Shown here piece after piece: positions 12,267 to 61,464 of a stretch of DNA of 64,000 nucleotides. The number at the start of each line of letters is the position of its first letter. Position 1 is the first letter of the stretch. The notes beneath the pieces were generated by a model. The model saw only the letters and a list, made by a program, of their open reading frames with translations. It was not told the DNA's origin and searched no databases. A program made the position numbers and the translations under genes. Origin of the DNA: a virus (Duplodnaviria > Caudoviricetes); the IMG/VR virus record IMGVR_UViG_3300047160_009226, positions 136,690 to 200,689 of that record; one strand, given 5' to 3'.

Positions 12267-12313
12267 ATTCACGCCGACCATAGAACTATACCACGTCGGC
12301 GTGAATTTTTCCC
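12267..12313 (-). promoter_or_regulatory. Phage promoter motif (GGGAAA-N17-TATAGT) embedded in a 12-bp inverted repeat
   Basis: TATAGT at 12290..12285, -35-position hexamer starts 12313; ATTCACGCCGAC (12267-12278) / GTCGGCGTGAAT (12295-12306). Confidence 0.65.
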
Positions 12314-12319
12314 CTGGAT

Positions 12320-12883
12320 TTACACCAAACCAGCCTTCGCTTTCTCCGCAGTGATCTTATAGACACCACCACGCCTACCCTGAATCAGAATCGGCATCTT
12401 CCAGTTACGCGGTTTAGCACCGACGATCGTATAGTTCTTGGTACGATTCTTGCCAAGACTGATTTTGCGGCCCAGATCCGTCGGAGCCAAGCCGTACTTA
12501 GCTGCGTGTTGACGGAAGTCGGCTTCCCATTGCCTACGCTTCTGATCAACCGATGGTGTAGAAGGAAGCGGCGCTCCAGCCAGAGGTCCGGTCGTCACAA
12601 CCGAAGAAGGCGTTGTTGTTATACCATCTGAGGAAGTCGCTGCCTTCCTCACGCGTACAAAACCGCCTTCTTTCAGTCTCTGTACGAAGTCACGGCCCTT
12701 ACTCGAGAGCTGAAGGTTATTTCCAGACCCGTAACTCGAATTCCATGCCACAGACGTCTCCCAACGATTGTCTACCATGCTGAATTCGAACCAGATCTTG
12801 ACTACCTCCAGCGTGGTTGCAGAATCAGCACTCACAAATCGATCGCCCACCTCAACCGAAAGAACTGCAAGGATGTCAGCCAT
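12320..12883 (-). CDS. Hypothetical protein, paralogue of 11710..12243
   Basis: ORF track; C-terminal KYGLAPTDLGRKISLG...YTIVGAKPRNWKMPIL domain. Confidence 0.75.
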   Translation of the reverse strand: MADILAVLSVEVGDRFVSADSATTLEVVKIWFEFSMVDNRWETSVAWNSSYGSGNNLQLSSKGRDFVQRLKEGGFVRVRKAATSSDGITTTPSSVVTTGPLAGAPLPSTPSVDQKRRQWEADFRQHAAKYGLAPTDLGRKISLGKNRTKNYTIVGAKPRNWKMPILIQGRRGGVYKITAEKAKAGLV

Positions 12884-12938
12884 TGATCGTCACCTCCATG
12901 TTACTATACTCGCCCATCCGTGGTTTTTCGCATAAATT

Positions 12939-15311
12939 CTAAAGATCGCATCCTGGACCCGTACAAGCCACTTGAGCGGAGAGTGTTGTCTCGTCTTCTT
13001 CCTCGTAGAGTAAAATTCGTGACCAGTCAATCTCCGTCGGCATGACTTTCGCACGCTGAGTATATTCCTGCTCAGTAATCGTTTGATAAGGGGCCAATGG
13101 ATAAACTGCGTTATCAAATGGATAGAACGAAATTCCACCTACAATATCCCAGTTCTCATAGACCCAGTTGCCTGCCTCGATCCACTCATGATCCTTGACA
13201 CTAACCGTTATACTTGGATTGTGCTCTGTAAAATTGACTTTCCAAGTCTTCCAGTCCTCTAATTGTTCAACGGCTGTCATATCGCCAAGAATAATGGTAT
13301 TATCAGGGGCTCTACACGGAAATTCAAACACACACATTCCTGTCTTATCATAATCGAACTGCCATGGAATCTTAGCGTCTTTTAATACCTTAGCAATAGG
13401 ATTGGTTTCCTCAAACCGAAGACGTCTGATGTAGAACCTTCCGTGATGCGGTTTAAATCTGGCCGGCTTATCAAAGAATACGCTCGAATCTCCGGACGGT
13501 TTTCCACAAGTAAGAGCCGCTCCAGGCTTAATTCCAATTCTCTGTGCCCAATAAACGTTAGTTTCCTGAACTTTCTTCAAAAGTCTCCGAAGGATCTCTT
13601 CTCGTCCCGATACTCCTGGCTTCAAAAGTTTACAATCCATATGCCCAAGAATATCTACCCCGAGTAAAGCCTCATCTTCACAATTAAATTTCCATTCAGA
13701 ACTAAGATATCTAAAATTAGTCATGCTTGCCTGAATAGTGCCCCAAATCGTCGCAATCTCAACCTTCTTCTCAATTTCCTCATAAGTATCATCAACTTCA
13801 ACAATCGCGATACTAAGGTTACAAAATTCTTTATGTCTAAGAATAATTTCACCACATGGATTTGTTCCTAGTACATGTTCACGTGCTCTCCTAACTGGCA
13901 TCTGATAATTTAACCCACCACGATTAAAAATCCCACGCTCTCCTGATCCGGATTTCGCCAATGCCATCCATTCGTCCATAAAGTCCACAGAAGTCGGCTT
14001 CTCTTCATATGCCGTTGAGTTATTAGTTTGATTCCTCCAAGGATGGGTGTTAAAAAACTCTCCCTTCTTCGCATCACGCATCAATAGATCATCTTTATCA
14101 GATAAAGAAAGACCTGATGCCCGTCTCACTCCACCCATCTGACCGATCCGATGCAACATGCATGTCATATCCAAAAGATCAATACTTCGTAAGCGCTTCT
14201 TCTGTCTCCTAAAAACCAAGTCACGGTCAAAATTCAATAAGTCACGCAATGGGAGTGGGCCACTCGCCCGTCCTCCTTTAGTTCTCAAAATAGAACCTGC
14301 TGGCCTGATCTGTGACAAATCAAAATTTACATCAGCTCCATCCATCCAATGGTGAAGGCCAAATTTCAGTGCATCACACCAAGCCTCGGTATCGTCTTCG
14401 ACCGTATAATCAACAGGATCGCAATCTCTCTTGGCATGAATTCTCGGCCACTTGTCAACGGCATATTCTTCTTCAACAGAGAATCCAAAACCTACACCTT
14501 GCATTAAAAGATAAAGATCTTCCGTCATCAATTCAGGACTGTCCATTAAACCAAATGCGCAATTATAAATTCCAGACTGACATCGTTCCAATGCCGGTCC
14601 TGCCATTTGAATTCCACGCATGCTGCCCGTTGCCTTGTGATGCAACAAGTAGTCATGCATAATTGCCCATGTCTCTTCTGAAACAGATCCAGGTGCAATC
14701 TTAGTGATATGACTACGATAATAATCTATTACTCGTTTGCAGGATTCAGGCCAGATCTCTCGTCTCTTGGGTGTAAAGTCACGACGAAACCGAGAGAACT
14801 TATCAAACGCCTGAACTTCCTGAAGAAGCCTATTCTTCCCGGTAAATGTATCACATCCCTTCTTAAAAAAGTCTCTCATCTCAGGTGAGATACCTTTAGA
14901 TTCTTCTCTAATACGTCTTCGCTCATCTCTATAGAGAATGTAATGCTTGGCTGCTTCAAATTGCCCAAGTGCCATTAACTGGGCTTCAACAATATCCTGA
15001 ATCGCTTCTATTCCAATTTCTGCCAGGTGGCCGTTCTCACCAAACTGAAGCGCTTTCAATCTCAGAATTGTATCCACTTGATCAGTAACAATCTCAGGAG
15101 TCATTCCTCCAATTCTTTCTGCCACACTTTCAAAACACATTCCCACGGCTCGAAGAATCTTATTTCTATCATAAGGTACAATATGCCCCTCTCGCTTCAC
15201 TACTCTCATCAGATTAGGATCAGCCAAAGTCAATAGAGCAGCGTCTGATTCACTGTGATTCTTGTTGTTTCCGTTAGTGAGCTTGTTCGTAAGAGCAGAA
15301 ACCAGCGCCAT
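12939..15311 (-). CDS. nrdJ: Class II (B12-dependent) ribonucleotide reductase with N-terminal ATP cone
   Basis: ATP cone VVKREGHIVPYDRNKI...AAKHYILYR; active site TNPCGEI...CNL; C-terminal CTGPGC; start refined to 15311 (SD AGGAG). Confidence 0.92.
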   Translation of the reverse strand: MALVSALTNKLTNGNNKNHSESDAALLTLADPNLMRVVKREGHIVPYDRNKILRAVGMCFESVAERIGGMTPEIVTDQVDTILRLKALQFGENGHLAEIGIEAIQDIVEAQLMALGQFEAAKHYILYRDERRRIREESKGISPEMRDFFKKGCDTFTGKNRLLQEVQAFDKFSRFRRDFTPKRREIWPESCKRVIDYYRSHITKIAPGSVSEETWAIMHDYLLHHKATGSMRGIQMAGPALERCQSGIYNCAFGLMDSPELMTEDLYLLMQGVGFGFSVEEEYAVDKWPRIHAKRDCDPVDYTVEDDTEAWCDALKFGLHHWMDGADVNFDLSQIRPAGSILRTKGGRASGPLPLRDLLNFDRDLVFRRQKKRLRSIDLLDMTCMLHRIGQMGGVRRASGLSLSDKDDLLMRDAKKGEFFNTHPWRNQTNNSTAYEEKPTSVDFMDEWMALAKSGSGERGIFNRGGLNYQMPVRRAREHVLGTNPCGEIILRHKEFCNLSIAIVEVDDTYEEIEKKVEIATIWGTIQASMTNFRYLSSEWKFNCEDEALLGVDILGHMDCKLLKPGVSGREEILRRLLKKVQETNVYWAQRIGIKPGAALTCGKPSGDSSVFFDKPARFKPHHGRFYIRRLRFEETNPIAKVLKDAKIPWQFDYDKTGMCVFEFPCRAPDNTIILGDMTAVEQLEDWKTWKVNFTEHNPSITVSVKDHEWIEAGNWVYENWDIVGGISFYPFDNAVYPLAPYQTITEQEYTQRAKVMPTEIDWSRILLYEEEDETTLSAQVACTGPGCDL

Positions 15312-15315
15312 GAGA

Positions 15316-15879
15316 CTATCTCCTGGTAAACTGTCCATTGATAGATGGTTGATAGGGCACTGGGCCATCGTACCCCCTGTAAAGCCCCTTATATGGAAGG
15401 ATTTCTCCTTCAGGCGTGTCATAGCTTATCTGACATATCGGCGTAAATGGAAAAATTACCACTGGAATAATTGAATAGATCTCTAATGTCCAACAACCTT
15501 CAAATCCGACGTCTCCAAAACCTGCTGTAGCGTGTATATGCAAACTCAGACGACCAGTAGAACTTCGTCCATCGAGCATAGGAATCAAATCCGGTGATAT
15601 TGTATACTCAGCGGTCGATCCCAGATAGAACCATCCTGGCTTAATGAGAAACCCTTTCTCAGGAGTCATGTAAACAGAGTAATCCGGTTTGTTTATCTGA
15701 CCCCAAACTAAAGGCTTTCTCCAAGGAGTAAACCAATATCGTGGTCGATAAACTAACAACCTCGGTCCAATAGACAGGTTATAACTATTCGGATTCACTC
15801 TCTCTTCATCAAAAGGTTTGATGGTTAATCGATTATCAGCGGCTCGCTTAGCGATCTCTTTTCCAGTCAATTTCGACAC
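15316..15879 (-). CDS. dcd: dCTP deaminase
   Basis: VNPNSYNL, LDGRSSTGRL, AGFGDVGFEGCWTLEI, ICQISY. Confidence 0.92.
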   Translation of the reverse strand: MSKLTGKEIAKRAADNRLTIKPFDEERVNPNSYNLSIGPRLLVYRPRYWFTPWRKPLVWGQINKPDYSVYMTPEKGFLIKPGWFYLGSTAEYTISPDLIPMLDGRSSTGRLSLHIHATAGFGDVGFEGCWTLEIYSIIPVVIFPFTPICQISYDTPEGEILPYKGLYRGYDGPVPYQPSINGQFTRR

Positions 15880-15901
15880 AATATTCCTCCCTTTTTTAAA
15901 A

Positions 15902-17419
15902 TCACCAGTAACTACTAATTGAGAGTGCTTCTATCAAAGATGTTGGATATCCTCCTGGAATCAAAATTGATTTTCCTACAATCGGAGGAGCGATTTGTGG
16001 AGTCAAGGACTCTGGCAAACTTCCCATCCTCCTATATTCATCAAAGTGATCTGAAGGACATTGAATCGTAAAATCTACATGAGGATTTCCAGCACAGAGA
16101 GAAACAGTAGCTGCCGCTGGATATCGATAGGTTAGAGCCGCTGTAATAAAGAAATCGGTTCCCAAAAAAGATGTCATCTTGGGTCTGCCCAGCAATACCT
16201 TATTAATCCCTCGTTCAAGAGCCAATACCGGTCTAGGATGCTTGACTATAAGATACGTATCATTTTCTTCACTAATTTTAGTAGGAACAGGTCTGTATGT
16301 TGATGTAAGTTGATCTGGATCATCTTGCTGATTTCCGACCATCAACCAGCCTTCTGTCTGCATGAGAATCCGTGAACAACGATCCAGTCCCATTAATCGT
16401 TCTAAAGCAAGAACATAAGTATCTAACGTCGATCGCTCACTCGGTCGAAGATAGAGTCCTTGTTTGACATTATAAAGTATACTTGTAAGAGTTTGTGTCG
16501 TTTTACTAAAAGGATACGTTAAATACGGAAAATTTCCAATAAACGAAGCAGGTGGCTCTGTAATCACCGGAGGTGGCAACACAAATAGTGGAGGCCCTGG
16601 AGGACCTGGAGGTGGACTTGGCGGGACATGAGGATCTTGAATCGGCGGAGGAGGAAATGGATCGTAGTTTGCTGGAAATCTAAAAAGATGGGCATCCGTA
16701 AATGGTGCAACCCAAAATCTAGTAACGTCAATCGGCCCCAATCTCTCTGAGATCTTAGTCATTGGAGGGATGACAAGATCTAACAAATCTGAATCAACAG
16801 GACTTTCAGGTGCTTTCCCATCAAGATACCAGTTTGGAACATTCCTAACAGCTGTATATCTAGGAAATGGTTGTGGTCCTTGATATGAAGGGTCCGCCCA
16901 ATACTTATAATCAATCAAAGAAGGTAGCGGAGGTTTCACCCCTTCGAACAGGGTGGACTTACTCTGCGAAGGTGGAGAAGGAGACGGAGAAGTGGAATAA
17001 TTAAACAAAGGCGGGGGTGACCATGCGTTTATCCAATAGTACAATACAAACTTCTTCTCAGTCTCAAAATACTGCAACACAGGATCAACGGCTGACTCTA
17101 TCAATGTTGCTGAAAAAGGACCTGATGTAGCACTATCAGAATCTGGCATAAGTGCAACAACTGGAATTAACTTTCCAGTCGGAGCACCATTAAAGGTGGT
17201 CGTAAGAAACAATGCCTTGATTCCAGCTCCCCAGCCAATCAACCCTAACAAATTTCCATCTGGATTATCTCTGGTGACTCTGACATACGCCTCTGGTGTA
17301 GGTGTACCTGCACTATACAAAGTAAATGCTGGCTGAAACTCTTCGAAGTTTTCTGCGATGACAGTCATCGCCTCCCCTGTCTCTGTGACCACAGATGAAG
17401 ATAATCGCATCACAGCCAT
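15902..17419 (-). CDS. Pro-rich putative virion protein, paralogue family member A
   Basis: N-terminal module shared with 17665..19182 and 19511..22501 (SVV..GE.LTVI.E...W.NAW.P). Confidence 0.7.
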   Translation of the reverse strand: MAVMRLSSSVVTETGEAMTVIAENFEEFQPAFTLYSAGTPTPEAYVRVTRDNPDGNLLGLIGWGAGIKALFLTTTFNGAPTGKLIPVVALMPDSDSATSGPFSATLIESAVDPVLQYFETEKKFVLYYWINAWSPPPLFNYSTSPSPSPPSQSKSTLFEGVKPPLPSLIDYKYWADPSYQGPQPFPRYTAVRNVPNWYLDGKAPESPVDSDLLDLVIPPMTKISERLGPIDVTRFWVAPFTDAHLFRFPANYDPFPPPPIQDPHVPPSPPPGPPGPPLFVLPPPVITEPPASFIGNFPYLTYPFSKTTQTLTSILYNVKQGLYLRPSERSTLDTYVLALERLMGLDRCSRILMQTEGWLMVGNQQDDPDQLTSTYRPVPTKISEENDTYLIVKHPRPVLALERGINKVLLGRPKMTSFLGTDFFITAALTYRYPAAATVSLCAGNPHVDFTIQCPSDHFDEYRRMGSLPESLTPQIAPPIVGKSILIPGGYPTSLIEALSISSYW

Positions 17420-17664
17420 TATAATTGCCTCATGTCAACTGGTATGAACCTCTCCGTGACTCCTAATACCACGGCCCTCTGAGAAAAAATGCCCAAAAAA
17501 ATAAGATCCATACCAATAAAAATAGGAATAGAGTTTCTCTATCCCTAGTACACGACATACCAACAGTCTATGGGCTACACAAACCGAAGTTTTAGACGGA
17601 TTAGCGAGGAGGAAAATAAGACAGTGCTTTTTCTAACCAATCTAGATAAAATCATTTTATATTA

Positions 17665-19182
17665 TCAATAAGAAATAAAATCCAAATGAAATTGATATAC
17701 ATCGTAGAACTCAGCTGCAACATCACAAGGATCTGACATGACCCAATCCACGGCTGCTTCTTGAAATAAGTCCGAAGTCGCACCATCTGTCAAAAATCCA
17801 TCATCGAGTATAGCCGTCCCGATATCGGGATAATCGTTCCAAGGAAACCACACACGATCCGCATTAATAAGAGTCCGATAGTTCGTCGTAACAGGAAAGA
17901 CACCAACAACTTGTGGAAAGTTCAATACTACCATTGACACTGTCGTTTCTTCTTCCTGCGTTGGCCACCACGGACCTCGAAATGTCCAATTAGTGCGGGG
18001 TAAAGAAAATGCACAGTCCAAACTAAATTTCAATTCACCATGAGAATTAAAATAAGAAGCGAGAAATTGTTTAGATATCGACTTGAAGATCGCCCCGTCC
18101 AATATCCATCCCTTCGCATACATGAGCACTCGCGTCGAATTCACCAGATTAGCGTGATCAAAATGAGCTTTCAATGCGTTGACAATGATCAAGTGATCTT
18201 CCCAATTCGTTGTCTTTAAAAACTCAACACCCACTCCAGGCAGACAAGCAGGTTCCATCTCACGGGTATATGGATTAGATTCTCCTACAGGAATAAACTC
18301 AGGGACATCTCGTATCGAAGCTTGCCTGATGTGTTCACCCGCTGCTATAATTCCACCCCGCCGTTCCCAGTCATCCCGTGCATCCGAAGGATCCGCCCCA
18401 AAGTCCGCAGGCGGTGGCCCGGGATAATCCATCAGGCCCCTCTTGATTGCGTCCTGAAGCCAACGGGCCCCCGAGGTCATAGGCATCCGTGGATCGCCAT
18501 TAGCCTTACTCTCCCCCATAATGATATTAGGTACCCCCTTCACTCCCATGGGGAAATAGTCGAATTGATATCCCTCAGGAATCGGTGCAATCCAGAATGG
18601 TTTAGTTTGATCAAAAGCTGAAGGATTTGTCTTTGGTACTAAACTTCTCAACCACGTTGGAGATTGTACATCTGGAACACTATGTGCTGCATAAAATGTA
18701 TTGGGAGGAGCAGGAAGTTTTCTCGTTAACAACTCAGATGGTGGACCTGGTGGAAGAGACAGTAAAACACTTGGAGTAACTGAAGGAGGAGGTGATAATG
18801 ATTCATTTGATATATAGTCCGGAGTCCATGCATTCCACCACCACAAACAGTGAACTGTTTTAGTAGTTTCATCAAATCCTACAGAAAGACCAATGGCATT
18901 ATGAAGTGGAAAAACTTTAATAGGCCGTGCTCCATAATTTGCATCTTTATACATACAAAGAATCGGCACAGGAAACGACTGAACCTCCTTCTTGGAAAGC
19001 AAAGAATAACTGATCCGACTTCCTATAGGATAGATCTCCTCCTGTATAAGAATACTTCCAGATGATTTCGGTAAGTTCACTTTAAACGCAGGAATACTAT
19101 ACTGAGCTGCCTCTGTAATGACAGTCAGTGATTCTCCAGAAGGAAGTGTAACTACTGATGGTCTCCGTCCAATAACCGGCAT
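17665..19182 (-). CDS. Pro-rich putative virion protein, paralogue family member B
   Basis: As above; WWWNAWTP and RVLMYAKGWI motifs. Confidence 0.7.
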   Translation of the reverse strand: MPVIGRRPSVVTLPSGESLTVITEAAQYSIPAFKVNLPKSSGSILIQEEIYPIGSRISYSLLSKKEVQSFPVPILCMYKDANYGARPIKVFPLHNAIGLSVGFDETTKTVHCLWWWNAWTPDYISNESLSPPPSVTPSVLLSLPPGPPSELLTRKLPAPPNTFYAAHSVPDVQSPTWLRSLVPKTNPSAFDQTKPFWIAPIPEGYQFDYFPMGVKGVPNIIMGESKANGDPRMPMTSGARWLQDAIKRGLMDYPGPPPADFGADPSDARDDWERRGGIIAAGEHIRQASIRDVPEFIPVGESNPYTREMEPACLPGVGVEFLKTTNWEDHLIIVNALKAHFDHANLVNSTRVLMYAKGWILDGAIFKSISKQFLASYFNSHGELKFSLDCAFSLPRTNWTFRGPWWPTQEEETTVSMVVLNFPQVVGVFPVTTNYRTLINADRVWFPWNDYPDIGTAILDDGFLTDGATSDLFQEAAVDWVMSDPCDVAAEFYDVYQFHLDFISY

Positions 19183-19412
19183 TTGTCAACAATCTCCTTC
19201 CATAATGCTCGGATCACCCTTACCACACTTTTAGGCATCCAGAACGGAGAGGTCAGTACCGTAAGAACCAACCCGATGATAAAAATCGTATACCTTGTCG
19301 TAGGCGATATTTTCTCTACCACCATCTTCATGTTCTGAATCGTCACAATCGCTGCCAGCGACATGCACACGAATACGTAAATCACCAAAATTTGCAAGAT
19401 CGATCCCATCAT
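19152..19412 (-). CDS. Small two-TM membrane protein with its own promoter
   Basis: Two hydrophobic stretches ILQILVIYVFVCMSLAAIV and YTIFIIGLVLTVLTSPFW; SD GGGAG. Confidence 0.65.
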   Translation of the reverse strand: MMGSILQILVIYVFVCMSLAAIVTIQNMKMVVEKISPTTRYTIFIIGLVLTVLTSPFWMPKSVVRVIRALWKEIVDKCRLLDGDHQ

Positions 19413-19442
19413 TCTCTCCCGAAGTAGAAAATCTCTCTCTAT

Positions 19443-19471
19443 ACTATACCCAGCTTTCGGGAGAAATTCTC
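19443..19471 (-). promoter_or_regulatory. Phage promoter motif GAGAAT-N17-TATAGT
   Basis: Minus strand GAGAATTTCTCCCGAAAGCTGGGTATAGT in intergenic DNA; upstream element is the palindrome GGAGAA-T-TTCTCC. Confidence 0.75.
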
Positions 19472-19510
19472 CTTAAATCAAAAATTTTTTTCTCTAAGCT
19501 TATCAATGAT

Positions 19511-22501: not shown

Positions 22502-22505
22502 TCTT

Positions 22506-22757: not shown

Positions 22758-22772
22758 ACCTTCAAATCCTTT

Positions 22773-37866: not shown

Positions 37867-37955
37867 GCTAACCCCTTTTCAAAATTGATCCTATCTCTAA
37901 ACTTAATATACCCCCAACCATCGAAAAATTATTCCTCAAAATGAGCCTACCTTCT

Positions 37956-47100: not shown

Positions 47101-47472
47101 AGATATACCCTTAATTGTCTCAGCATAAGATCTAGCACTATTAAGAGTGCTCCTAATCTTCATGCTATACTTATCGAATTGATCAAGCTCTTTAGCTCTC
47201 TCTTCGATAAGCGGGCGAAGTGCCTTAAGAGTGTCTCCATATGTCTTAGCTAGCTTTTTTTCTTCGTCCTCAAGATCACCGGTCGCTTCCCCGGCCTTCT
47301 TCTTTGCTGCAATCTCTTTCTCAATGAGTTTTAGTTCTTGCTCCTGTATCTTTGCCTTTCTCTCAAGTGCATCAGTATACTCATCAAGATCCTTTTTTCC
47401 CATGCCACCTGCGCCACCACCGGCACCACCGGCACCTGCTCCACCACCAAGACCTCCAGGAGTGGCAGGCAT
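44104..47472 (-). CDS. Tape measure protein
   Basis: 1122 aa, Ala/Gly-rich centre, long coiled-coil helices; lies between chaperone-like genes and the hub. Confidence 0.85.
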   Translation of the reverse strand: MPATPGGLGGGAGAGGAGGGAGGMGKKDLDEYTDALERKAKIQEQELKLIEKEIAAKKKAGEATGDLEDEEKKLAKTYGDTLKALRPLIEERAKELDQFDKYSMKIRSTLNSARSYAETIKGISERYYEYNLSTQRAIDATGKFGGQSAQARREFESLRTSLNLTRKAAEDFGKTWAEGLKLGATTKQLEAMGKQLQAIYGQIGGIEAAKQIIATPMTRQTFQGVTAEKADFGAILEALRTAQTPEQQEALVGRVPGEEPKAGAEAAKFETTGAAVAKTYDDFQHAMGELINKGIGPEGAQLLAPVLDIASNVQKIAEAGKSGWSSLSSFLGAKAGAQAAGGAAKAGAQAAGLGAAEAGIGAAEAGTVATTTGAVARAGRFAGAVGKVGRFAKSPLGIGLIGEGVAMGAEALRGYTTKGSTADIALKHTGKGGRIAGAAGTGAFIGSLVLPGAGTAIGGAVGGAAGVAKEYGSDIVTGMKSLSGWIMGNTDATKDQQTEQRTLRDVTREMTTSIQTSDKYMNNLNATLKTMPEAIEAATARRGMEIGKGEIDRAGFAEGQKKIGENITASIGKITQGTTDEISRLEMQRDKTLKEMADRGATDDQLQKTGAIFQNAINRQSQNMQNQLKELNVGGQVEDIMGRMETRQGQLGLERQGAQARYEATGAITGRREDVAEYQQEITRTYAEQIKNFNEEAQEARNTLEARKRDIAIALQTKGLRDKERQNLINEARDLEVKGQQLERNLKLRENALQVEKRTADIAAMEAQITAYERTEVYRRGKLEQGLARARESFLRERGATPGEIGETAREQGRAAEQMQAKFMENFAKDLDDLNQRLAEARAGGREADVLVIQDKIFALRQKEYEVAQATVQARVHAATAEAEETMKQAGIQKSMLEVMRDTAARTGQSWRVQMGYQSKIIEASRVDLKAAQEAFAQAKAAGLTGAPLMEKQLAVVQKDAALREAIMGKQRDFLDKAIAASFGMGGGTKALPNFSPRIFGEVVKDPFGQMWQGAPKTMMETRMAMGGNIRGAIGGGGIGVGGGAIGIGPGGRPGVNPVEAAALAAGMPPEAARAAAKAAGAIDVSGNIEIVVKSDTAMFKGEVEDKSILVSNRAQKPGFFA

Positions 47473-48481: not shown

Positions 48482-48484
48482 GGT

Positions 48485-49314: not shown

Positions 49315-49635
49315 CTAATCCCCTCTGCCGAACACCACCTTAAGAACTCCAACTACAAGCAGCACGAAAAACAGGATCGTATGACCAGAAAATCCTGTCC
49401 AGTTCTGAAACCAAACCAACGGCAGACCTACTGTCAACACTACCAAAAGCAAACCACCACTGCCATAGTCAGTGATAGGCAGACTTCCGTTTTGTTTCCA
49501 AGCCTTCTGAGGATCATAAAACGGACTGTGCGGATTTCTCAGATTAAATGGCGAATCCGAATTGCGGGGATTCAGCAGATCGTCATCCTGTCTCATCGAT
49601 CTCTCTTTCTTGGTTAAAACTTGGTTCGGGCTCAT
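49315..49635 (-). CDS. Small membrane protein with NPxxPxSP-type motif and two C-terminal TM helices
   Basis: LLNPRNSDSPFNLRNPHSPFY; hydrophobic C-terminus. Confidence 0.6.
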   Translation of the reverse strand: MSPNQVLTKKERSMRQDDDLLNPRNSDSPFNLRNPHSPFYDPQKAWKQNGSLPITDYGSGGLLLVVLTVGLPLVWFQNWTGFSGHTILFFVLLVVGVLKVVFGRGD

Positions 49636-49651
49636 CGGAGCCCTCTCTAGT

Positions 49652-49680
49652 ACTATACCCCACTCGTCCCGAAATTTCTC
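49652..49680 (-). promoter_or_regulatory. Phage promoter motif GAGAAA-N17-TATAGT
   Basis: GAGAAATTTCGGGACGAGTGGGGTATAGT. Confidence 0.8.
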
Positions 49681-49919
49681 TATTTTTCCCGTTCCAAAGT
49701 ATCGGCCAACTCACCGTGAATACGATTCACGCCACGGTAATCAAAAATGGCCGGTACACCACCCGGCGCTATGTGTACCGCTACCCCATCACGGGTAACT
49801 AATGCTCTCGGAGAATCGACCTCCAACAACCGCCCGCTCACCAACTCAATAGCAAAAGGCTGAAACGGTTGTCGCTGCATAAAAGCATCAACGGCATTCT
49901 CAAAATTCTCTCGCTCCAC
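49680..49919 (-). CDS. Small protein of a Planctomycete-type family (RxPFxPFxIxLxSG)
   Basis: QRQPFQPFAIELVSGRLLEV; start refined to GTG 49919 after SD GAGGGG. Confidence 0.75.
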   Translation of the reverse strand: MERENFENAVDAFMQRQPFQPFAIELVSGRLLEVDSPRALVTRDGVAVHIAPGGVPAIFDYRGVNRIHGELADTLEREK

Positions 49920-49983
49920 AACAATTCCCCTCCCCCTCAACTCAAGGATTTCTCCATTTTAGAAGTAACGAACCCTCTATGGT

Positions 49984-50012
49984 ACTATACTCTACTCATC
50001 CCGAAATTTCTC
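49984..50012 (-). promoter_or_regulatory. Phage promoter motif GAGAAA-N17-TATAGT
   Basis: GAGAAATTTCGGGATGAGTAGAGTATAGT. Confidence 0.8.
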
Positions 50013-50246
50013 CTACTCTGGCAAAGATTCATGTTTGCATTCGACGGCATCAATAGAACTCAACCTCATCAAGTTGATCCCTTTGCCAGGAATAGCCATG
50101 ATCAGTAAATTGGGATAAGAATTTGTAACGAATATCTCAGATCCTTCTGTAATCTGATAAACTTTATTTGCTTTAGTTCTAATGGAATACGGGCGAGTCA
50201 AGTCTCCCTCAAGAATCAGGGTCTTAAAATCAGTAATAGTAGACAC
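50013..50246 (-). CDS. Small protein, divergent member of the same family as 49680..49919
   Basis: RPYSIRTKANKVYQI...INLMRLSSIDAVE. Confidence 0.65.
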   Translation of the reverse strand: MSTITDFKTLILEGDLTRPYSIRTKANKVYQITEGSEIFVTNSYPNLLIMAIPGKGINLMRLSSIDAVECKHESLPE

Positions 50247-50289: not shown

Positions 50290-50318
50290 ACTATACTCGA
50301 CTCAAGCCGGAATTTCTC
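50290..50318 (-). promoter_or_regulatory. Phage promoter motif GAGAAA-N17-TATAGT
   Basis: GAGAAATTCCGGCTTGAGTCGAGTATAGT, immediately after the terminator. Confidence 0.8.
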
Positions 50319-50328: not shown

Positions 50329-50362
50329 AAAAAAGAAACCCCTTCCAATCCATGGAAGGGGT
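50329..50362 (-). terminator. Rho-independent terminator ending the tube operon
   Basis: ACCCCTTCCA-TGGAT-TGGAAGGGGT stem (10 bp) followed by TTCTTTTTT. Confidence 0.9.
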
Positions 50363-50397
50363 CCTTGATCTCTCGATCTATTACCAACCATCCATCA

Positions 50398-51512: not shown

Positions 51513-51521
51513 CTATTTTAG

Positions 51522-52794: not shown

Positions 52795-52843
52795 AATTAA
52801 CTCTCAACCTCTTGAGTAACATACATCTTACTTTTTCATCTTT

Positions 52844-53731: not shown

Positions 53732-53740
53732 GATTTACAC

Positions 53741-54535
53741 TCAAGCAGTCCGTGATTTCACCCATAATATCTCTGTTCTACGGCTTTTAGCCCCCTTGAG
53801 GGGACTGCTAAAAGCTGCGATGTCGATCTCTACACGATCCCACCCAGAAAGTTCTTTATCGTACATATGATGTGCATATCCACTCAAGATAACACTTCCC
53901 TTCAGGTCTTTAATTAATCTGAGCAATCGGAGATGATCGAACGATAATAACTCATTGGTATACATATTATGAGCCACTCGCGTTGACCTATAATAAGGAG
54001 GATCAAGGTAGAAAAATGTTTCAGTAGAATCATACTCAAGAATGACGTCGAGAGCAGATTTCGAAACTATTCTCACCCCCTTTAATCTCCGTGCTACAAT
54101 AGGAATATTATAGGGCAGGGTTTCCCAAGATTCCCCTTTCTCATCTGTTTTCACCCAACTCCCACATCCAGAAAACGACATGCGGTGACGAATCAACAAA
54201 TTCACTGCCCGTGTCAATTCATCACCTTGACCAATCGCAGATCGGGCAGCTAAAAAAGTTTCCTTCTCCCATTTCGTCTGCCGAATCCTCTCCATTAACT
54301 TTTCCGGTGTCTCAACTAGCACATGATAAAAATTAATGACCTCCTTATTAATATCACACGCAATTTCAATGTCTGATCTGAACTTATTTAGCAGGACACT
54401 CAGACCTCCAGCAAATCCTTCCACGTATGTGGTATGAGGCGGGGACATCTGAAGAATACGTCGACAAATTATGGTCTTTCCCCCGTAATAATTTAAAATG
54501 GGGCTAACTTTTTGAGCTACATAATTCTCAATCAC
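53741..54535 (-). CDS. dam: Dam-family N6-adenine DNA methyltransferase
   Basis: PILNYYGGK, YVEGFAGGLSV, FFYLDPPYY. Confidence 0.9.
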   Translation of the reverse strand: MIENYVAQKVSPILNYYGGKTIICRRILQMSPPHTTYVEGFAGGLSVLLNKFRSDIEIACDINKEVINFYHVLVETPEKLMERIRQTKWEKETFLAARSAIGQGDELTRAVNLLIRHRMSFSGCGSWVKTDEKGESWETLPYNIPIVARRLKGVRIVSKSALDVILEYDSTETFFYLDPPYYRSTRVAHNMYTNELLSFDHLRLLRLIKDLKGSVILSGYAHHMYDKELSGWDRVEIDIAAFSSPLKGAKSRRTEILWVKSRTA

Positions 54536-54640
54536 TTTCCAATCCCTCCAATAAAATTATACCTAAGTAAACAATACATTATCACACTGACATAGAAAAC
54601 ATCCGCAGTCATCCACTTGACTAAGCCCCAGGTCAACCCC

Positions 54641-55450
54641 CTAAAACCACCTAGACTTCACCCACACCACCTCGACTCTTTGTGACTTGACCTTATCCGT
54701 AGAAGAATTAATCGACGTCTCAAAAGAATATTTTTCCCAACCATCAAGCTCTTTATTATAAACTGGATTGTCATACCCACTGATAATGACATTACCTTGA
54801 CACCTGAGAATTCTTTTAAGTAAAAAAAGATGTTGAAAAGCTGTCATCTCATATTCATACGCGTTAGAAGATTGCCTGGTTGAAGGATAATAAGGAGGAT
54901 CTAAATAAAAACTAGTGTTTGGTCCGTCATACCGATCAATTAAATTCAGAGCTGGCTCATTGTAAAACTCCACCCCCTGGAGTCTATAAGCCGTAAACTT
55001 GAGATCCTCGTCAAGATAGCCCCAACCGCTCTTTTTACTCTGCTCACTGATCTTACCAGAGATCTTTGAAAAATAATCGCCCATTCCAGAGGACGACATG
55101 CGATGCTTGATCAAAAAATTAAGAGCCCTGTCTACGGGATCTGTAGATATCCCCGCAGCCAAGGCTCTCTTGAAGACTTCTTCTCTATATGGGATATCTT
55201 TCAGACGATCTAAGATAACAGAAGAGTAATCCCTAACTGTTTCATAGAGGTGAATAAGTTCGGTGTTGAGATCACCGACTATCTCAGTTCCATACTTACA
55301 CTTGTTGAGCAGAACATTCAATCCACCTGCAAATGGCTCGACATAAATATCAGAGTCAGGAATAAGATCAATGATTCGACGGGCTAGAAAACTTTTTCCT
55401 CCGTACCACTTCAAAACTGGTCTAACCTTGAAATTGATATAGTTTGCCAC
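54641..55450 (-). CDS. dam: Dam-family N6-adenine DNA methyltransferase (tandem paralogue)
   Basis: PVLKWYGGK, YVEPFAGGLNV, FYLDPPYY. Confidence 0.9.
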   Translation of the reverse strand: MANYINFKVRPVLKWYGGKSFLARRIIDLIPDSDIYVEPFAGGLNVLLNKCKYGTEIVGDLNTELIHLYETVRDYSSVILDRLKDIPYREEVFKRALAAGISTDPVDRALNFLIKHRMSSSGMGDYFSKISGKISEQSKKSGWGYLDEDLKFTAYRLQGVEFYNEPALNLIDRYDGPNTSFYLDPPYYPSTRQSSNAYEYEMTAFQHLFLLKRILRCQGNVIISGYDNPVYNKELDGWEKYSFETSINSSTDKVKSQRVEVVWVKSRWF

Positions 55451-55459
55451 GACTTTTCT

Positions 55460-56032
55460 CTATAATACTTGTTCTTCTACCCATCTCAAATTATTTACAA
55501 TTCTACTAATACAAGAAACACGAACATTAAACTCCAGAGCCAAAGCTTTTTGACTTACTCCGTTAGCATATCTTCTTCTAATTTCTCTCACCTGTATCCA
55601 ACCCAATACCGCCTGATGATTTCTTTCCCCATTTTGATCTGTCCCATGAATGAGCTTATCATAATGGTTGTTTACCCTTGTATCATATCGCAAATTCCGA
55701 TAATCATTGTTAAGAGTATCGCCATCATTATGACAAACTTCCATCCCCTTAGGGCAAGATCCATACACCGCTTCACACACAAGTTGGTGAACTTTTCTAG
55801 GACATTTATTCCCATTAAAACAAAGGAAAGCCATCCGATATCCATCACCACCTACTGATGCTTTTAATCTCGTCCAATCATCTGATATATAACAATCGCT
55901 AAATCCTCGGCGTTTATACCTACTCCACAGAGAGCCATCATCTCCAATCGCATATGCACTTCCAAAACCAGGAATCCAAAAATATCGAATCGGACCATCA
56001 GATCCGACACCAATACTTTGAAGATTATACAT
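55460..56032 (-). mobile_element. Free-standing NUMOD4-HNH homing endonuclease
   Basis: YAIGDDGSLWS, KVHQLVCEA..MEVCHNDGDTLNN..NLRY, C-terminal HTH; paralogue of 37072..37866. Confidence 0.9.
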
Positions 56033-56041
56033 CTTAATACC

Positions 56042-56092
56042 TCATAAAAATTTAACACATGGTCTAACTTTAAAATTGATATAATTAGCCAT
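56042..56092 (-). other. 16-codon mini-ORF duplicating the first 11 codons of dam 54641..55450
   Basis: MANYINFKVRPCVKFL* versus MANYINFKVRPVLKWYGG. Confidence 0.8.
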
Positions 56093-56100
56093 GTGAAAAC

Positions 56101-56289
56101 TTAGTTCGTGTTGATGAGTGGTGCTGTCATGTATCCGAATTTGGGTGAGACTCGAATCAGGTAATTCGTTGACTTATCCTGAAAGAAGATGCTGTGCTGA
56201 GGTAATCTAATGAGTAAATCAGCGGCCCTCTCTAACCTTTTTCGGTTCTCGATCTCGTTCTGTTTCTTTTGTGAAATGGGTTCAATCAT
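56101..56289 (-). CDS. Small hypothetical protein, 62 aa
   Basis: ORF track 56101..56418 trimmed to ATG 56289, downstream of the tube stop. Confidence 0.5.
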   Translation of the reverse strand: MIEPISQKKQNEIENRKRLERAADLLIRLPQHSIFFQDKSTNYLIRVSPKFGYMTAPLINTN

Positions 56290-56311
56290 TGAAAAAACCC
56301 TGTCCCCCCTA

Positions 56312-58682
56312 TCACGTATAAGACATGGCCATGGGAGGTGCGGTGCCATCACCGAGTCCTCCGAAACCAAAAGTACGCGGCACGACTTCGTTCTGCCCTG
56401 CAATAGCGAACTCTTCACTCGTCAGAAGGACATGTGCGAATGTGATCGTCGGATTCGTACCGCCACCAGTATTACCCGCAAGGAACAGAGTGACATTCGT
56501 CGTTGACGCGGTGAATGGTGCAACAGGTGGCCACTGATATGCATACGGGTCCGGAATCACACCATCCCGGAATAGACGCATCGTGCCATCGACACTCATA
56601 ACACCCTGAAAGACGGCTGCAGGGTTTGGATCCCCTGTGCAATTCGATACCGTAATCCCATTGGCAATAAATGAACGTGTGCTTGATTCGTACACGTCAT
56701 AAACATCAACGGGATAGTACCAGGGAGTAACTCTTTCAACCTTATCAAAGTACCAGTCCTGTGCCTGATACATTCTCAAAAGTTGGAGTTCAGAGCCAGA
56801 GCACTTCAAAGTTTCTGCCCGCTGAATAATGCGAGGCAAAGTCGTCTCAGCCAAAACGTTCGAATGTCCATTCCTAACGTTCTTAATTCGAGCCGTCGTC
56901 GCATCTTCTTCTCGATCCCTGGCTTTATACACATACTTACCAGGGAACAGAGCCCGAATCAGAACCTGAGCATAGGGAACATACAGGGATTTATCAATCT
57001 CCTGTGTCCGGTTCGCAAAGTAAGATTCCAAGGCGTCCTGCTTGGAATCCAATGCAAAACCAACTTTCTCTAGGAACCACTTCCTGCTGCGAATCCCAAC
57101 CACCCGAACGTCATACCTTCTTGCAACATACTTTCGTCCGTTGATCTCAGACTTAAAAGACGTCGGAGTAATGGTGGAAATGACTCCCAGCAAATGCAAA
57201 GCTCGACGAACATCCCTGGCCAAAAAACGATACTTGGTCGAAAAATGAATAACACCTCCATTTCTCACACCACCATCCGTAGTGAATAAGCCTCGTAGCA
57301 GTGCTCCCAATTGCTTCTCTCCCAAAGACCACGTCTGTTCAGGGAGTCCCTTCTCTCTCCACCGGCCCTTCGGTTGATAAGAAGGAATCTCAGTGAATTT
57401 TGATCGATCCGCCTTTCGTGTACCCAAGTAAAATTGAGTCTGTTCGCAATCCATCTCCCCATTTTCCAACTCAAACGGAGGACGAATCGACTCAGAATAT
57501 TCAAGACCCTCTTCCTGGAAGAAATCCTCCAGTAGAGATACCAAGCTCTTCTCAGACTCAGTCACTTGCCATACCAATCTCCCGTTATCATCCTGAGATC
57601 CATCTCCATAAAGATGACCGATGGCATACCACCTCTTGATCGACCCACCACGATCCTCAGGGATCAACCCTCCATGACCACGACGACACAACAACCAATC
57701 TCCCTCCCCCAACTCATCGGCCCGTTTCCAGCTCAGCGTCCCGTCACCACGCATCACTCGCATCTTATGATCTGGAGTGACTCTGATATCGTTATGCAGC
57801 TCGGTACGAATCCTCAGGACGTCCCTCTTGCCCTGATAAACCAATCCCCTGTGCCTCTGAATTCCATGCTCAGAAAGCACCCGACCAGGCTCATCCAACA
57901 AGGAATCAATCCGATGATAACCTATAGGTGTCATGATTCTTGAGTCTGCGGCTAAACAACCACGCACGACTTGTGTGTTGTTGTTCATAGTCCAGTCAGC
58001 TCCCATCATAAACATGCCCGTTGGATTCGTCGGAGAGTAATTCGGCGGAGCCCCTCCCGGCCAACCACCCCCAGCAGGGAAATTAGGAGGCCACAGATTC
58101 ACCTGTGCCTGAGCCAACCAACCAGGAAACGGATTTCGGTTGATAGGAGCCGGATTCAAAGGGAGTGTCGGTACGTTCGATGTTGTCCGGACTGCCCGAT
58201 ATGTACTTGCAGAGTAAGTCTCTGATCTCTGCAAACCGATCACATTGCAATTCAACTTGATTGATGCCGCTGGATCGACCGTAAACCCAGCTGAATTCAT
58301 CCAGACCCCACCACGGGTATTCCCAGTAGGATTGGGATCAGCCTGAAAAGACTGGATCGCCAATCCATTCGGCGACACGATCATGCTCTGAGGATACACC
58401 CTCCAGTTGACTAACCAGTCCGAAATCAAATTCCAGACCGTAGGAAGACCTCCCTGAAGTTCGAAGGTCAGTGCCCCTGAGAATTGCATCTGACTATCTG
58501 CGTAGTTTGTGTGTTGAGCACCAGTCCACCACCCGGCTCCCCATACTGCTTCGGAGAGAATCGGGTTCACCTCGCGGTTCAATCCACCCGTGTTTGTCAA
58601 CAGGAGAATTGCAGGATATTGACCGCCTGGAGATGCGGTAGGTCCACCTAACTTCGCAAAACCCGAAGTACCCTATTGACAT
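56312..58682 (-). CDS. Tail tube-like protein, paralogue 3, intein-containing; true start at 58682 needs a +1 shift at codon 8
   Basis: Exteins align with the other tube paralogues (GYFGFAKL vs GYSGYAIV; ADWTMNNN...PNPAAVFQG vs NWSLTFNN...PNPALISAG); SD GGGGGG before 58682. Confidence 0.75.
56642..57958 (-). mobile_element. Intein with LAGLIDADG homing endonuclease (439 aa)
   Basis: Block A G|CLAADSRIMT, block B IRVTPDH, LAGLIDADG-like AIGHLYGDG and LRGLFTTDG, block F/G VYDV...FIANGITVSN|C. Confidence 0.95.
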
Positions 58683-58743
58683 AGGATACCCCCCTTTCTT
58701 TGAAAAAAGACACCCTGATTTCCGTGACGCCTCAATCTACCCA

Positions 58744-59229
58744 TTACTCATCCGAGAGTGGAAATAGCTTGAATTTACTTTTTTCCTTCAATCGATATGG
58801 ATAAGGAAACACATTAAATCCGCCCTTCGCCGCCACAACAATCGGAAAATATCCTATGAGTCCCGTCATACGCCCCTTAATAGCATAAAAAATTGTCGGT
58901 TCCTTATCTTCAAGAAGATTCATATCAACACCTACAATAATACCAGGACGTTTACCAGGTTCTGTCCAACTCAAAGCCTCTTTAATAAGTAATGAAGAAC
59001 TGATCTTTTCAGCGATTGCTAATCCCATGTGATCTGCTGGATCACACAAAAAGATAACAGGATGATTGATTCCTTCGTGAGCTAAACGATTGGCGAGTGC
59101 TTCACAGCGATCCCAAAGAACCTGAGTCACCCTGTATGCAATTGCCTCCAGTTCTTGATCGTCAGCATCGCCCATATCGATGCCTAAACCATCATCATTG
59201 TCATCATCGGGTCTCTGAACCAACTTCAT
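58744..59229 (-). CDS. Hypothetical protein
   Basis: ORF track 58744..59313; start refined to ATG 59229 after the upstream stop. Confidence 0.65.
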   Translation of the reverse strand: MKLVQRPDDDNDDGLGIDMGDADDQELEAIAYRVTQVLWDRCEALANRLAHEGINHPVIFLCDPADHMGLAIAEKISSSLLIKEALSWTEPGKRPGIIVGVDMNLLEDKEPTIFYAIKGRMTGLIGYFPIVVAAKGGFNVFPYPYRLKEKSKFKLFPLSDE

Positions 59230-59233
59230 GCCA

Positions 59234-59530
59234 TTATTTCTCCCACCAGTTCTTGGGTTTTCGTAGATTTTCGACTGGCTCAGTACGTCCGACACGTCCT
59301 CTGCGTTTCTCAACAGACCGCTCCACCAATTCCTTCACCCATGGGATGGCTAAGAAAATCTCCAAAGCCTCCTTGATTTCCCCAGTCAACTTATTCTCAG
59401 ACATCCAGTCGAGATATCCAACTCCTGCCGGATCACTAGTGGCAATCTTCTCTAATGTCTGGCCCTGATACTTACCAAAGGGCATCGAAAATTGACAGGC
59501 TTGCTCAGGATTCATATTTTTACCCTCCAT
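59234..59530 (-). CDS. DUF3820/ExoX C-terminal-like small protein
   Basis: MPFGKYQGQTL..I......GYLDWM motif. Confidence 0.75.
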   Translation of the reverse strand: MEGKNMNPEQACQFSMPFGKYQGQTLEKIATSDPAGVGYLDWMSENKLTGEIKEALEIFLAIPWVKELVERSVEKRRGRVGRTEPVENLRKPKNWWEK

Positions 59531-60077
59531 TTTTTTCCTCTGCCTCTTTCACCAACTCCGGATCTAAAGGAGAAAGAGGGTCCTTCCAAAAGACCTTAAT
59601 ATCACGGGCAGCTGGAATTTGACCACTCGGGAATTGCTGTTTCAACCCATAGTCAAGGACAAAACTCTCAGCGACTTCCTGTTCCATCAACAAAGTAGCA
59701 AATTTGACTGCCTCAGAATCTGGCGGCATATCTTTCATTCTTTCATTAAATTCTCTTCCAAAACCGGCATAATAAATAGGACCTCCGTCGTCCTCCCTTT
59801 TTGCGTCAGGGAAGACCACACACCAAACGGTACACCCTTCAACCACATATCCGCCTTGATGCCCGATCAATCCATTAACAATTCGTGAAAGAACCTGTCC
59901 CTCCTCATCAATGTCATCTCGATTTAAAGTTTGGCCAACACTCATACGCTCATTGGCCATTTCAATAAGTTCTGCCAGAGAGAAAATTTTGATACTTTCA
60001 AAATCAATGACATCAGGATAAAAAGCTGGACCTTGTTCCAGATGATTCAGAAAATACGCATGCTCTTCGCAATCCAT
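59520..60077 (-). CDS. Hypothetical protein
   Basis: ORF track; start refined to ATG 60077 (SD AGGGG). Confidence 0.65.
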   Translation of the reverse strand: MDCEEHAYFLNHLEQGPAFYPDVIDFESIKIFSLAELIEMANERMSVGQTLNRDDIDEEGQVLSRIVNGLIGHQGGYVVEGCTVWCVVFPDAKREDDGGPIYYAGFGREFNERMKDMPPDSEAVKFATLLMEQEVAESFVLDYGLKQQFPSGQIPAARDIKVFWKDPLSPLDPELVKEAEEKNGG

Positions 60078-60210
60078 TGTCTTTCCCCTAAGCAATAAAC
60101 TTCTATTGCGATAATAGCTCAATCTCAGATCTTGAAATTTTCTCTTTCTTCTCCAACTTAAAGAGGGTCATCTCATTAAGCCACCATAAGCATGGTAACT
60201 TAATCATCGT

Positions 60211-61071
60211 TCACCTCCCCTTGATCAAACTATGCGCAGCATTAAGGGCCAAATATCGATCGTCAAAATGGTTCTGGAAGTTCACGGAGACCAACCCATT
60301 TCTAGTCTGAAATGCTGCTGCCTCCGCAATCACATCCAGATAAACTGAATTCTTGAGAATGGAACCCAGTAGATCCAGGTCTTTGATAGACTTGGCCGCA
60401 TCCACGATCTCGAATAATGCACTTACGAAGTAGGGAAAAATCTCCTTGGGCCACTTCCCACCCCGAGTCATGACGTCAAAACCGCAAGCCACCTGAGCAA
60501 GCCTGTACCCTAAGGCACAACCGCAATGGGGTTTCTGACCTGCCAAGGTGATACATCGGCTAAACTCCATTTTCATCCATGAAACCAAATCCTTATCCAG
60601 ATCAACCCCATCCTGTGGTGGCGTTGCCTTTGGAACTGGTGTGCCATTATTAGATACAGAAGTTGCAACAAGTGTCTTCTGTGGAGAAGATCCAGAAGGA
60701 GGAGATGTCATGGGAGTCACGGCAACCCCCATAATTGTCTTCGAAAACTTGGTCACCGATGCCGGAATCGGAGGATTTGTCAATGATGGTGCCGGTTTTG
60801 GCGGAGCCTTCTTAACTTGCTCCTCAAACTTCACCTCAAGGCACGGCAGACAAATAACTGAAAAAACCTCTTCTTTCGGACCGGCAGGAAACGACTCAGT
60901 GGCTGCCACGATCCACGCAACACACTGCTCCAGGGCAATAGTTCTACGCCCGTTCCCCTTCTTCGGAGGAATCAACTTCTGGGCTTCAGACTTTGTCTTG
61001 GCAGGCTTCCTCTTCCCAGGAACCTTCTTCTCGGAAACCTTCTTCTCGGATGTCATACTCATCGACTCCAT
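60211..61071 (-). CDS. Hypothetical protein, Lys-rich N-terminus and Pro/Ser/Thr linker
   Basis: ORF track. Confidence 0.65.
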   Translation of the reverse strand: MESMSMTSEKKVSEKKVPGKRKPAKTKSEAQKLIPPKKGNGRRTIALEQCVAWIVAATESFPAGPKEEVFSVICLPCLEVKFEEQVKKAPPKPAPSLTNPPIPASVTKFSKTIMGVAVTPMTSPPSGSSPQKTLVATSVSNNGTPVPKATPPQDGVDLDKDLVSWMKMEFSRCITLAGQKPHCGCALGYRLAQVACGFDVMTRGGKWPKEIFPYFVSALFEIVDAAKSIKDLDLLGSILKNSVYLDVIAEAAAFQTRNGLVSVNFQNHFDDRYLALNAAHSLIKGR

Positions 61072-61177
61072 AATTTCTGATGTAACTTGTATCTAGCCCC
61101 GTAAAGGAGTGACGATTTCTCCTCTCCTAAGAAATCGCCACCCACTTCCAGACAGAAGTACTTCTGCCTAGACCAAT

Positions 61178-61390
61178 CTAGTCCTCGTCGTCCTCTTCCT
61201 CGATCTCATCATCGTCCTCGTCATCGTCGCCATCGTCGCTGATAATCCTCGACTGATCATTCAGGTGCTCCTGAATCTCGTCAAAAAGTTCCTCTTTGGT
61301 ATCGTCATCGAGTTCTGGATCATTTGCGATGGCATCAATTGCTTTCATCACATCCGCTTTCAATAGATCCGACTTGACTGACATGGGCAC
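61178..61390 (-). CDS. Small, highly acidic protein
   Basis: C-terminus DDGDDDEDDDEIEEEDDED; SD AGGAGG; own promoter. Confidence 0.7.
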   Translation of the reverse strand: MPMSVKSDLLKADVMKAIDAIANDPELDDDTKEELFDEIQEHLNDQSRIISDDGDDDEDDDEIEEEDDED

Positions 61391-61435
61391 CTCCTAAGAA
61401 TTCAATCGAAACCTGATGATCCGCTCCCGTAACCT

Positions 61436-61464
61436 ACTATACCCCCAACAAGCGAGAATTTCTC
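61436..61464 (-). promoter_or_regulatory. Phage promoter motif GAGAAA-N17-TATAGT
   Basis: GAGAAATTCTCG...GGGGTATAGT; upstream element is the palindrome CGAGAA-A-TTCTCG. Confidence 0.75.

Follow-up and report, generated by a model that had tools for sequence, protein, structure and literature searches.

The final 64 kb of the virus record IMGVR_UViG_3300047160_009226 (64,000 nucleotides, positions 136,690 to 200,689, hereafter the window), a single contig of 200,689 bp with a CheckV completeness of 91%, carries several copies of a bipartite sequence, GAGAAA-N17-TATAGT, that recurs elsewhere in the same genome. The evidence set out below, all of it drawn from sequence, supports the view that these sites are a real, recurrent and strand-specific class of promoter-like elements which stand before non-structural genes and are conserved in related phages. 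They would form a single phage-specific class of bipartite promoters for a bacterial RNA polymerase. The genes driven by this class would be those of the accessory block (73-100 kb of the genome), those that open the replication block and small ones standing alone within the tail block; many of the copies come as terminator-promoter-gene cassettes. The motif offers a map of some 23 transcription units for an uncultivated soil phage of 200 kb, shows which genes of its tail block are non-structural inserts and places three candidate sigma-like proteins beside a defined DNA element.

The motif, its frequency and its placement

An initial annotation of the window reported six copies of GRGAAW-N17-TATAGT and all six are present exactly where it placed them, every one on the minus strand, which is the coding strand of the phage (approximately 198 of 215 crude gene calls on the contig). 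Dinucleotide shuffles of the window predict 0.05 such sites and none of 100 shuffles reached six; when the second base is left free (GNGAAW-N17-TATAGT) a seventh window site is added at 12903-12931 with the hexamer GCGAAA (0.02 expected). Across the whole contig there are 15 strict matches to the motif, and a position-matrix scan returned 20 matches above 12 bits, all on the minus strand and none on the plus strand, against 0-2 in first-order shuffles. Allowing a spacer of 17 or 18 bp gives 23 credible sites contig-wide, 20 with the shorter spacer and three with the longer. A similar frequency inside coding regions or on the opposite strand, which the annotation had named as grounds for doubting its promoters, was looked for and not seen, all 23 sites being on the coding strand. 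Two weaker variants lie outside this class count, GAATAA-N18-TATATT at 37905-37934 (minus strand) in the gap upstream of a 264-aa gene and GGGAAA-N16-TATACT at 47374-47401 (minus strand) inside a 1122-aa gene.

The conserved unit is longer than was first described, running from an A-tract at approximately -46 to -41 through G-n-GAAA-W-W, the 17-bp spacer (18 bp in the three sites mentioned) and G-TATAGT to a following base that is mostly A. The G directly before TATAGT is invariant and usually falls within a G-R-G run, and among the sites with a TATAGT box both the G at -13 and the G at -8 are invariant. With two blocks 17 ± 1 bp apart and a TAnnnT -10 box, on the coding strand and close upstream of genes, the sites have the form of a bipartite promoter of the sigma-70 family. 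The -35 element had also been described as often palindromic, with a dimeric activator as one possible reader, and here the wider set of sites gives a different picture. Inverted repeats at -35 with arms of at least 5 bp occur in three of the 23 sites (3% in a column-resampled control) and with arms of at least 4 bp in five (13% in the control), leaving 18 sites without one, and the copies of the accessory block read GAGAAAAA..., which is asymmetric. The palindrome is confined to a few copies in the window and is not a feature of the class, so the dimeric activator loses its support.

A Shine-Dalgarno sequence and a start codon follow the -10 box by 18-64 nt in 22 of the 23 sites. Between 13 and 16 of the sites fall in the accessory block at 73-100 kb. 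Besides its many small genes this block encodes an SNF2 helicase, an AAA/VWA pair, an HD protein and a ricin-calpain protein. No class site was found in the head block (1-73 kb) or from 100 to 134 kb of the genome, and structural genes are not headed by the class. Of the seven window sites, four stand before small unrelated genes in the tail block (61436, 50290, 49984 and 49652), 19443 lies where that block ends, and 12903 and 12285 are at the head of the replication block. The only tRNA gene of the phage, a tRNA-Leu(TAA) at genome position 73902-73984 (minus strand), belongs to the accessory block too and has a promoter copy upstream of it. At genome position 84399-85380 (L001:12399-13380, minus strand) there are three promoter copies within 1 kb that have similar leaders (...ACAAGGAAC...) and no called gene of at least 40 aa; this trio may drive very small genes or RNAs.

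Homologues of the SNF2 helicase encoded next to the 12285 site that are 72-88% identical can be found on contigs from soil metagenomes. In the four contigs L006, L008, L009 and L012, where the helicase is 86-88% identical, the gap between the ribonucleotide reductase and helicase genes holds one to three copies of the motif, and in alignments of orthologous sites both hexamers are invariant or nearly so whilst the spacers diverge. A further contig, L045, has kept the site upstream of a 281-aa sigma-like gene as GAGAAA-N17-TATGGT. The distant relatives L004 (a contig of 199 kb) and L007, with helicase identities of 50-58%, have no copy of the motif in the 16-22 kb examined. No relatives were found by megablast against a phages collection or by scans of IMG/VR proteins with the helicase and the 293-aa protein, and four soil DNA sequencing runs yielded a few contigs of 150-350 nt that are identical to the window, with no usable variation. 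A scan of IMG/VR for GAGAAA-N16-GTATAGTA gave at least 102 single matches, which is the chance level, and a matrix rescan of the matches listed found no locus with multiple good sites. Searches of the literature for the GAGAAA-N17-GTATAGT motif and for a promoter consensus of Planctomycetes found nothing relevant.

Individual sites and their cassettes

Each of the six copies first reported had been placed directly upstream of one small accessory gene, a description that fits 61436, 50290, 49984, 49652 and 19443 and fails for 12285, which heads a packed string of genes. All the features described in this section are on the minus strand. The GAGAAA-N17-TATAGT copy at 61436-61464 has its -35 element within the inverted repeat CGAGAAATTCTCG and lies upstream of a 70-aa gene (61178-61390), the product of which ends in a C-terminal poly-acidic tail, DDGDDDEDDDEIEEEDDED; any role for this product as a DNA mimic or in binding a protein partner is a guess. 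At the end of the tail block the copy at 19443-19471 has the hexamer GAGAAT, its -35 element falls within GGAGAATTTCTCC, and it stands after the gene for a 996-aa Ig-domain protein and upstream of that for an 86-aa protein of membrane type.

Three copies are arranged as an array of three cassettes, each with one small gene (49315-50246; 77, about 80-86 and up to 106 aa). The first, at 50290-50318, directly follows a hairpin resembling an intrinsic terminator (50336-50364; 12 pairs and a T-run) that ends 15 nt before its -35 element, the second, at 49984-50012, has its -35 element abutted by the TAG stop codon of the 77-aa gene, and in the third, at 49652-49680, the -35 element is overlapped by the upstream stop codon. 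The three small genes are not paralogues of one another, and PHROGs and Pfam gave no name to these or to any of the other small genes downstream of the motif. Terminator-like hairpins within 70 nt upstream, among them that at 50336-50364, accompany about nine of the 23 sites.

Two copies lie at the head of the replication block. The copy at 12903-12931 (GCGAAA-N17-TATAGT) falls in the gap that separates the ribonucleotide reductase gene from a 187-aa gene and has orthologous sites in L006, L009 and L012; that at 12285-12313 (GGGAAA), which has orthologous sites in L006, L008, L009 and L012, heads a string consisting of genes for products of 177 and 168 aa, the SNF2 helicase, DnaB and a 225-aa sigma factor. 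The 187-aa and 177-aa genes (11710-12883) are paralogous (29% identity, E 4e-14) and each has its own copy of the promoter. Such promoter-gene units number two in L009 and three in L006 and L012, which indicates that turnover of the cassettes happens at the promoter boundaries. A conserved hairpin at 12259-12304, with arms TCACGCCGAC / GTCGGCGTGA and a T-run, has a loop that includes the -10 box of the promoter at 12285. When it is aligned with L006:2909-2968, L008:314-373 and L012:1269-1328 there are 10 pairs with three compensatory double changes, plus G-U variants, which makes the hairpin a probable RNA terminator for the 187-aa gene upstream, sharing sequence with the promoter that follows.

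Host type, sigma-like proteins and the reader of the promoters

The ricin-calpain gene of the phage has its best bacterial matches in two genomes of Isosphaeraceae (Planctomycetota), with 69% identity across the protease domain and 50% over almost the whole length. The 225-aa sigma factor, too, has a region 4 that is close to the RpoD of Isosphaeraceae (48% identity over 61 residues; TYTLMEVGRIFKLTRERIRQ versus TYTLEEVGRIFKVTRERVRQ), which is a second clue to the host and suggests that part of this gene was captured from the host. The virus is therefore probably a phage of Planctomycetes. In the same two Isosphaeraceae genomes TTGACA-N17-TAnnnT is enriched 2.4- to 5.8-fold over the reversed control (64 versus 27 and 58 versus 10) whilst GAGAAA-N17-TAnnnT equals it (32 versus 35 and 18 versus 24), and GAGAAA agrees with the host consensus TTGACA at three of six positions, short of a -35 element for the host primary sigma. 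In 301 genomes of Planctomycetota the exact motif GAGAAA-N16-GTATAGT was found below control (9 versus about 27), whereas the 0.2-Mb phage has 12 copies. The earlier statement that TTGACA is replaced is borne out by these comparisons, and as far as the indirect host assignment goes GAGAAA-N17-GTATAGT appears to be private to the phage and not of host type. The -35 element would then not be one specified by the host primary sigma.

It is established from structural work that the residues TRER(V/I)RQ in region 4.2 of sigma factors read TTGACA. The RpoD proteins of the two Isosphaeraceae genomes have this canonical helix (VTRERVRQIEAKAVRKL, TRERVRQ), which speaks against the earlier suggestion of an unusual primary sigma in the host. 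No RNA polymerase family, whether T7-like or multisubunit, was found in the phage, and canonical TTGACA promoters are not enriched in its genome (27 on the minus strand versus 30 on the plus strand, with almost every one of them lying within a gene), so the host polymerase must be used. Together with a motif that is not of host type, this points to a specificity factor of phage origin. In 61 upstream regions free of the motif nothing convincing emerged as a second, late motif, the best 7-mer having a p value of 2.5e-5 before correction for multiple tests; enrichments of TAGAGA and TAAGTTT were discarded as promoter motifs, as they are in part stop codons and leaders.

Three sigma-like genes, all on the minus strand, are candidates for such a factor, and this part of the suggestion of a phage sigma stands, although which of the three reads the motif can be named as a candidate only. 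The lead candidate, the 455-aa protein P0039 (532-1899), is predicted to have, in this order, an ~80-aa N-terminal extension, an extracytoplasmic function (ECF)-type sigma2 domain at ~79-165 and a sigma4 domain at ~199-217 and 327-378 that is split by an SH3-like beta insert at ~225-290, followed by a C-terminal CxxC...CxxC. An all-against-representatives structural search (VIA-align) with its AlphaFold model (predicted local distance difference test, pLDDT, of 68) matched nearly only sigma factors, among them SigK sigma2 (Z 7.8, residues 79-161), region 4 of sigma-H (Z 8.3) and region 4 of sigma-E on -35 DNA (Z 6.7, root-mean-square deviation 2.3 over 68 residues). The whole model gave weak local matches only in Foldseek, its sequence profile had no match among PDB sequences, and its matches to Pfam Sigma70_r2 (E 0.079) and TIGR02937 (E 0.014) are below threshold; some of its homologues have been labelled "sigma24 family" by the Joint Genome Institute (JGI). 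The protein is conserved after a split PolA gene in L006 (70%) and L004 (about 40%). Its putative recognition helix is identical in L006, where the motif is present, and different in L004, in the stretch of which no motif was seen. Alone among the three genes it has no class promoter upstream, the gap of 162 nt before it being free of the motif. A small conserved hairpin (TCTCG...CGAGA) lies in this gap (1900-2061, minus strand), just upstream of the ribosome-binding site, and is also found at L006:12014-12113.

The second candidate, the 281-aa protein P0040 (genome position 133753-134598, L003:5753-6598, which is 2.1-2.9 kb before the window), has no family match, and its model is that of a two-domain sigma-like protein with Z scores of 6-7.8 to sigma32, SigL and AlgU. 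Its gene is preceded by the variant GGAAAA-N17-TATGGT, a weaker form of the motif; autoregulation, which is a trait of ECF sigma factors, would thus have a class copy, if a variant one, before the gene for P0040 and none before that for P0039. The third, the 225-aa protein (6334-7011), has a region 4 like that of primary sigma factors (LTRERIRQI; Sigma70_r4 E 3e-10 and the RpoD C-terminal model E 3e-16, from Pfam and NCBIfam) and its gene lies in the string behind the 12285 promoter.

On balance we favour a reading in which the promoters are recognised by the host core RNA polymerase with a phage-encoded sigma factor, most likely the ECF-like P0039 and failing that P0040, and in which the other phage sigma genes would lie behind promoters of the class as in a sigma cascade. 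P0039 is preferred because of its ECF-like fold, given that ECF sigmas read -35 elements of GAAAC type and -10 elements of CGTA type, because it is the sole sigma-like gene not behind a copy of the motif and because L006, a relative with the motif, has the same putative recognition helix and L004 another. We infer that the promoters fire, when they do so and what reads them from the letters of the genome and from predicted folds, and several points count against the reading. The reader has been assigned by exclusion and resemblance, and the host from two things, one acquired gene and the region 4 found in the 225-aa sigma. For helical proteins the Z scores of P0039 and P0040 in the fold comparisons are middling, and the sequence profiles of both are not significant; in L045 the P0039 helix is altered (PTSMSGRIKKLEK), yet the one site seen there has GAGAAA. 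GAAA and GTATA stand 2 bp closer together here than the corresponding blocks do in ECF promoters of Bacillus, and TATAGT is also a good -10 box for a primary sigma. Finally, if a phage sigma is required then the first transcription after infection is left unexplained, as no host-type promoter is evident upstream of P0039. A bolder version, which we regard as improbable, would answer this by having no host-type promoters at all, with all non-structural genes of this jumbo phage expressed from the private class by an oversized sigma of new architecture (a sigma2, a sigma4 holding an SH3-like insert, and a zinc ribbon). Such a sigma would have to be there when infection begins, perhaps carried in the virion and injected with the DNA or beside it; if true, the phage would be independent of the host primary sigma from the first minute without encoding a polymerase of its own.

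The alternative that deserves the most attention, unlikely but by no means negligible, is that the host sigma-A holoenzyme reads TATAGT and that a monomeric activator of phage or host origin, bound to GAGAAAWW, takes the place of a -35 element in the manner of MotA/AsiA of T4 or of class II activators. TATAGT agrees with TATAAT at five of six positions and keeps A-11 and T-7, the A-tract is located where an UP element would be, and an activator from the host would allow transcription to start without a pre-made phage sigma. However, the invariant G-13 and G-8 of the TATAGT-box sites are not required by a -10 of the sigma-A type, and the three sigma-like genes of the phage would be left without a detectable promoter class. 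No candidate activator has been identified, the AsiA and MotA C-terminal domain families (PF09010, PF09158) gave no match at E up to 1 in this 91%-complete record, where very divergent analogues are possible, and a host regulon of this kind is not visible in the 301 Planctomycetota genomes, where the motif is not enriched. That the true host has been misassigned and reads the motif with a primary or alternative sigma of its own has a small chance of being correct: the host assignment is indirect and this is the only conspicuous class before early-looking small genes, as is typical of early promoters read by the host, but the enrichment of TTGACA and not of GAGAAA in the Isosphaeraceae genomes, the deficit of exact copies across Planctomycetota and the canonical RpoD helix all run the other way.

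Slimmer still is the prospect that the 225-aa phage sigma is the reader. It is the only one of the three that sequence profiles confirm, and its divergent region 2.3/2.4 could fit an unusual -10 box with fixed G residues; with E. coli numbering put onto an alignment with SigA chains, the changes there would be W434 to C, Q437 to H and T440 to W. At the base-contacting positions, however, the helix of its region 4.2 (LTRERIRQI) is identical to those of primary sigmas and is predicted to read a -35 of TTGACA type, so that GAGAAA would be an unlikely target for it. The sequenced stretches of L006 and L004 yielded no homologue, though L006 uses the same motif, and its own gene is behind a class promoter. 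We give the least credence to the idea that the repeats are mainly signals for recombination or for cassette boundaries, or operators, and not promoters. The number of promoter-gene units varies among relatives (two versus three) exactly at the sites and one copy overlaps a conserved hairpin, whereas two blocks with a spacer fixed at 17 bp, a TAnnnT box, restriction to one strand and a steady distance to the start codon are predicted by a promoter and not by a recombination site. The two roles coexist in T4-type phages (PMC2839356).

Comparison with known promoter systems

To our knowledge almost nothing is known of transcription in phages of Planctomycetes, and the closest comparisons come from other hosts. 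In the sigma cascade of Bacillus phage SPO1, gp28 reads middle promoters of the form AGGAGA-N17/18-TTTnTTT and gp33/34 serve the late promoters. The likeness to SPO1 extends to a large lytic phage that would use the host core polymerase with several small sigma-family proteins and a private bipartite promoter, to a purine-rich -35 (GGAGA-like in some copies here) with 17-18-bp spacing, and to later sigma genes placed behind an earlier class. In contrast to SPO1 the -10 is TATAGT and is not T-rich, there is no demonstrated sequence relationship to gp28, no canonical host-type early promoters are visible and only one promoter class was detected. The middle promoters of T4, which combine a MotA box at -30 with a sigma-70 -10 and depend on AsiA, likewise have a near-consensus -10 and an element other than TTGACA at the -35 position with fixed spacing, but the sites described here have no MotA-box sequence and, as set out above, no family for either protein was detected.

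Promoters of ECF (group 4) sigma factors have a -35 of GAAAC type and a -10 of CGTA type, as in tGAAAC-N16-CGTA of B. subtilis sigma-W (PMC5758882). The present motif resembles them loosely, with a GAAA-based -35, after which T residues are frequent, and a -10 opening with an invariant G and then TA, and the candidate readers P0039 and P0040 are predicted to fold like ECF sigmas. It differs in that the C of CGT is not conserved, the blocks are 2 bp closer together than in tGAAAC-N16-CGTA and the -10 is a complete TATAGT that includes A-11 and T-7, as promoters of primary sigmas do; P0039 is itself unusual, being 455 aa long and having both an SH3-like insert and a tail like a zinc ribbon. If P0039 reads the motif, the two would make up an orthogonal sigma-promoter system whose domain layout is unusual.

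The organisation of the cassettes is most like that of the PeSL units of T4-type phages, in which a stem-loop terminator and a promoter flank small variable genes, the promoters being early ones read by the host sigma-70 (PMC2839356, PMC4122927). Composite terminator-promoter units between small variable genes are found here too, and their number differs between close relatives at the unit boundaries. The GAGAAA class departs from PeSL units in that its motif is not of host type, and a clear upstream hairpin is seen in only about nine of the 23 copies. A private promoter class, phage sigmas and promoter-terminator cassettes are thus a known phage strategy, familiar from SPO1 and T4-type phages, of which this phage would be a new example in a barely studied host group.

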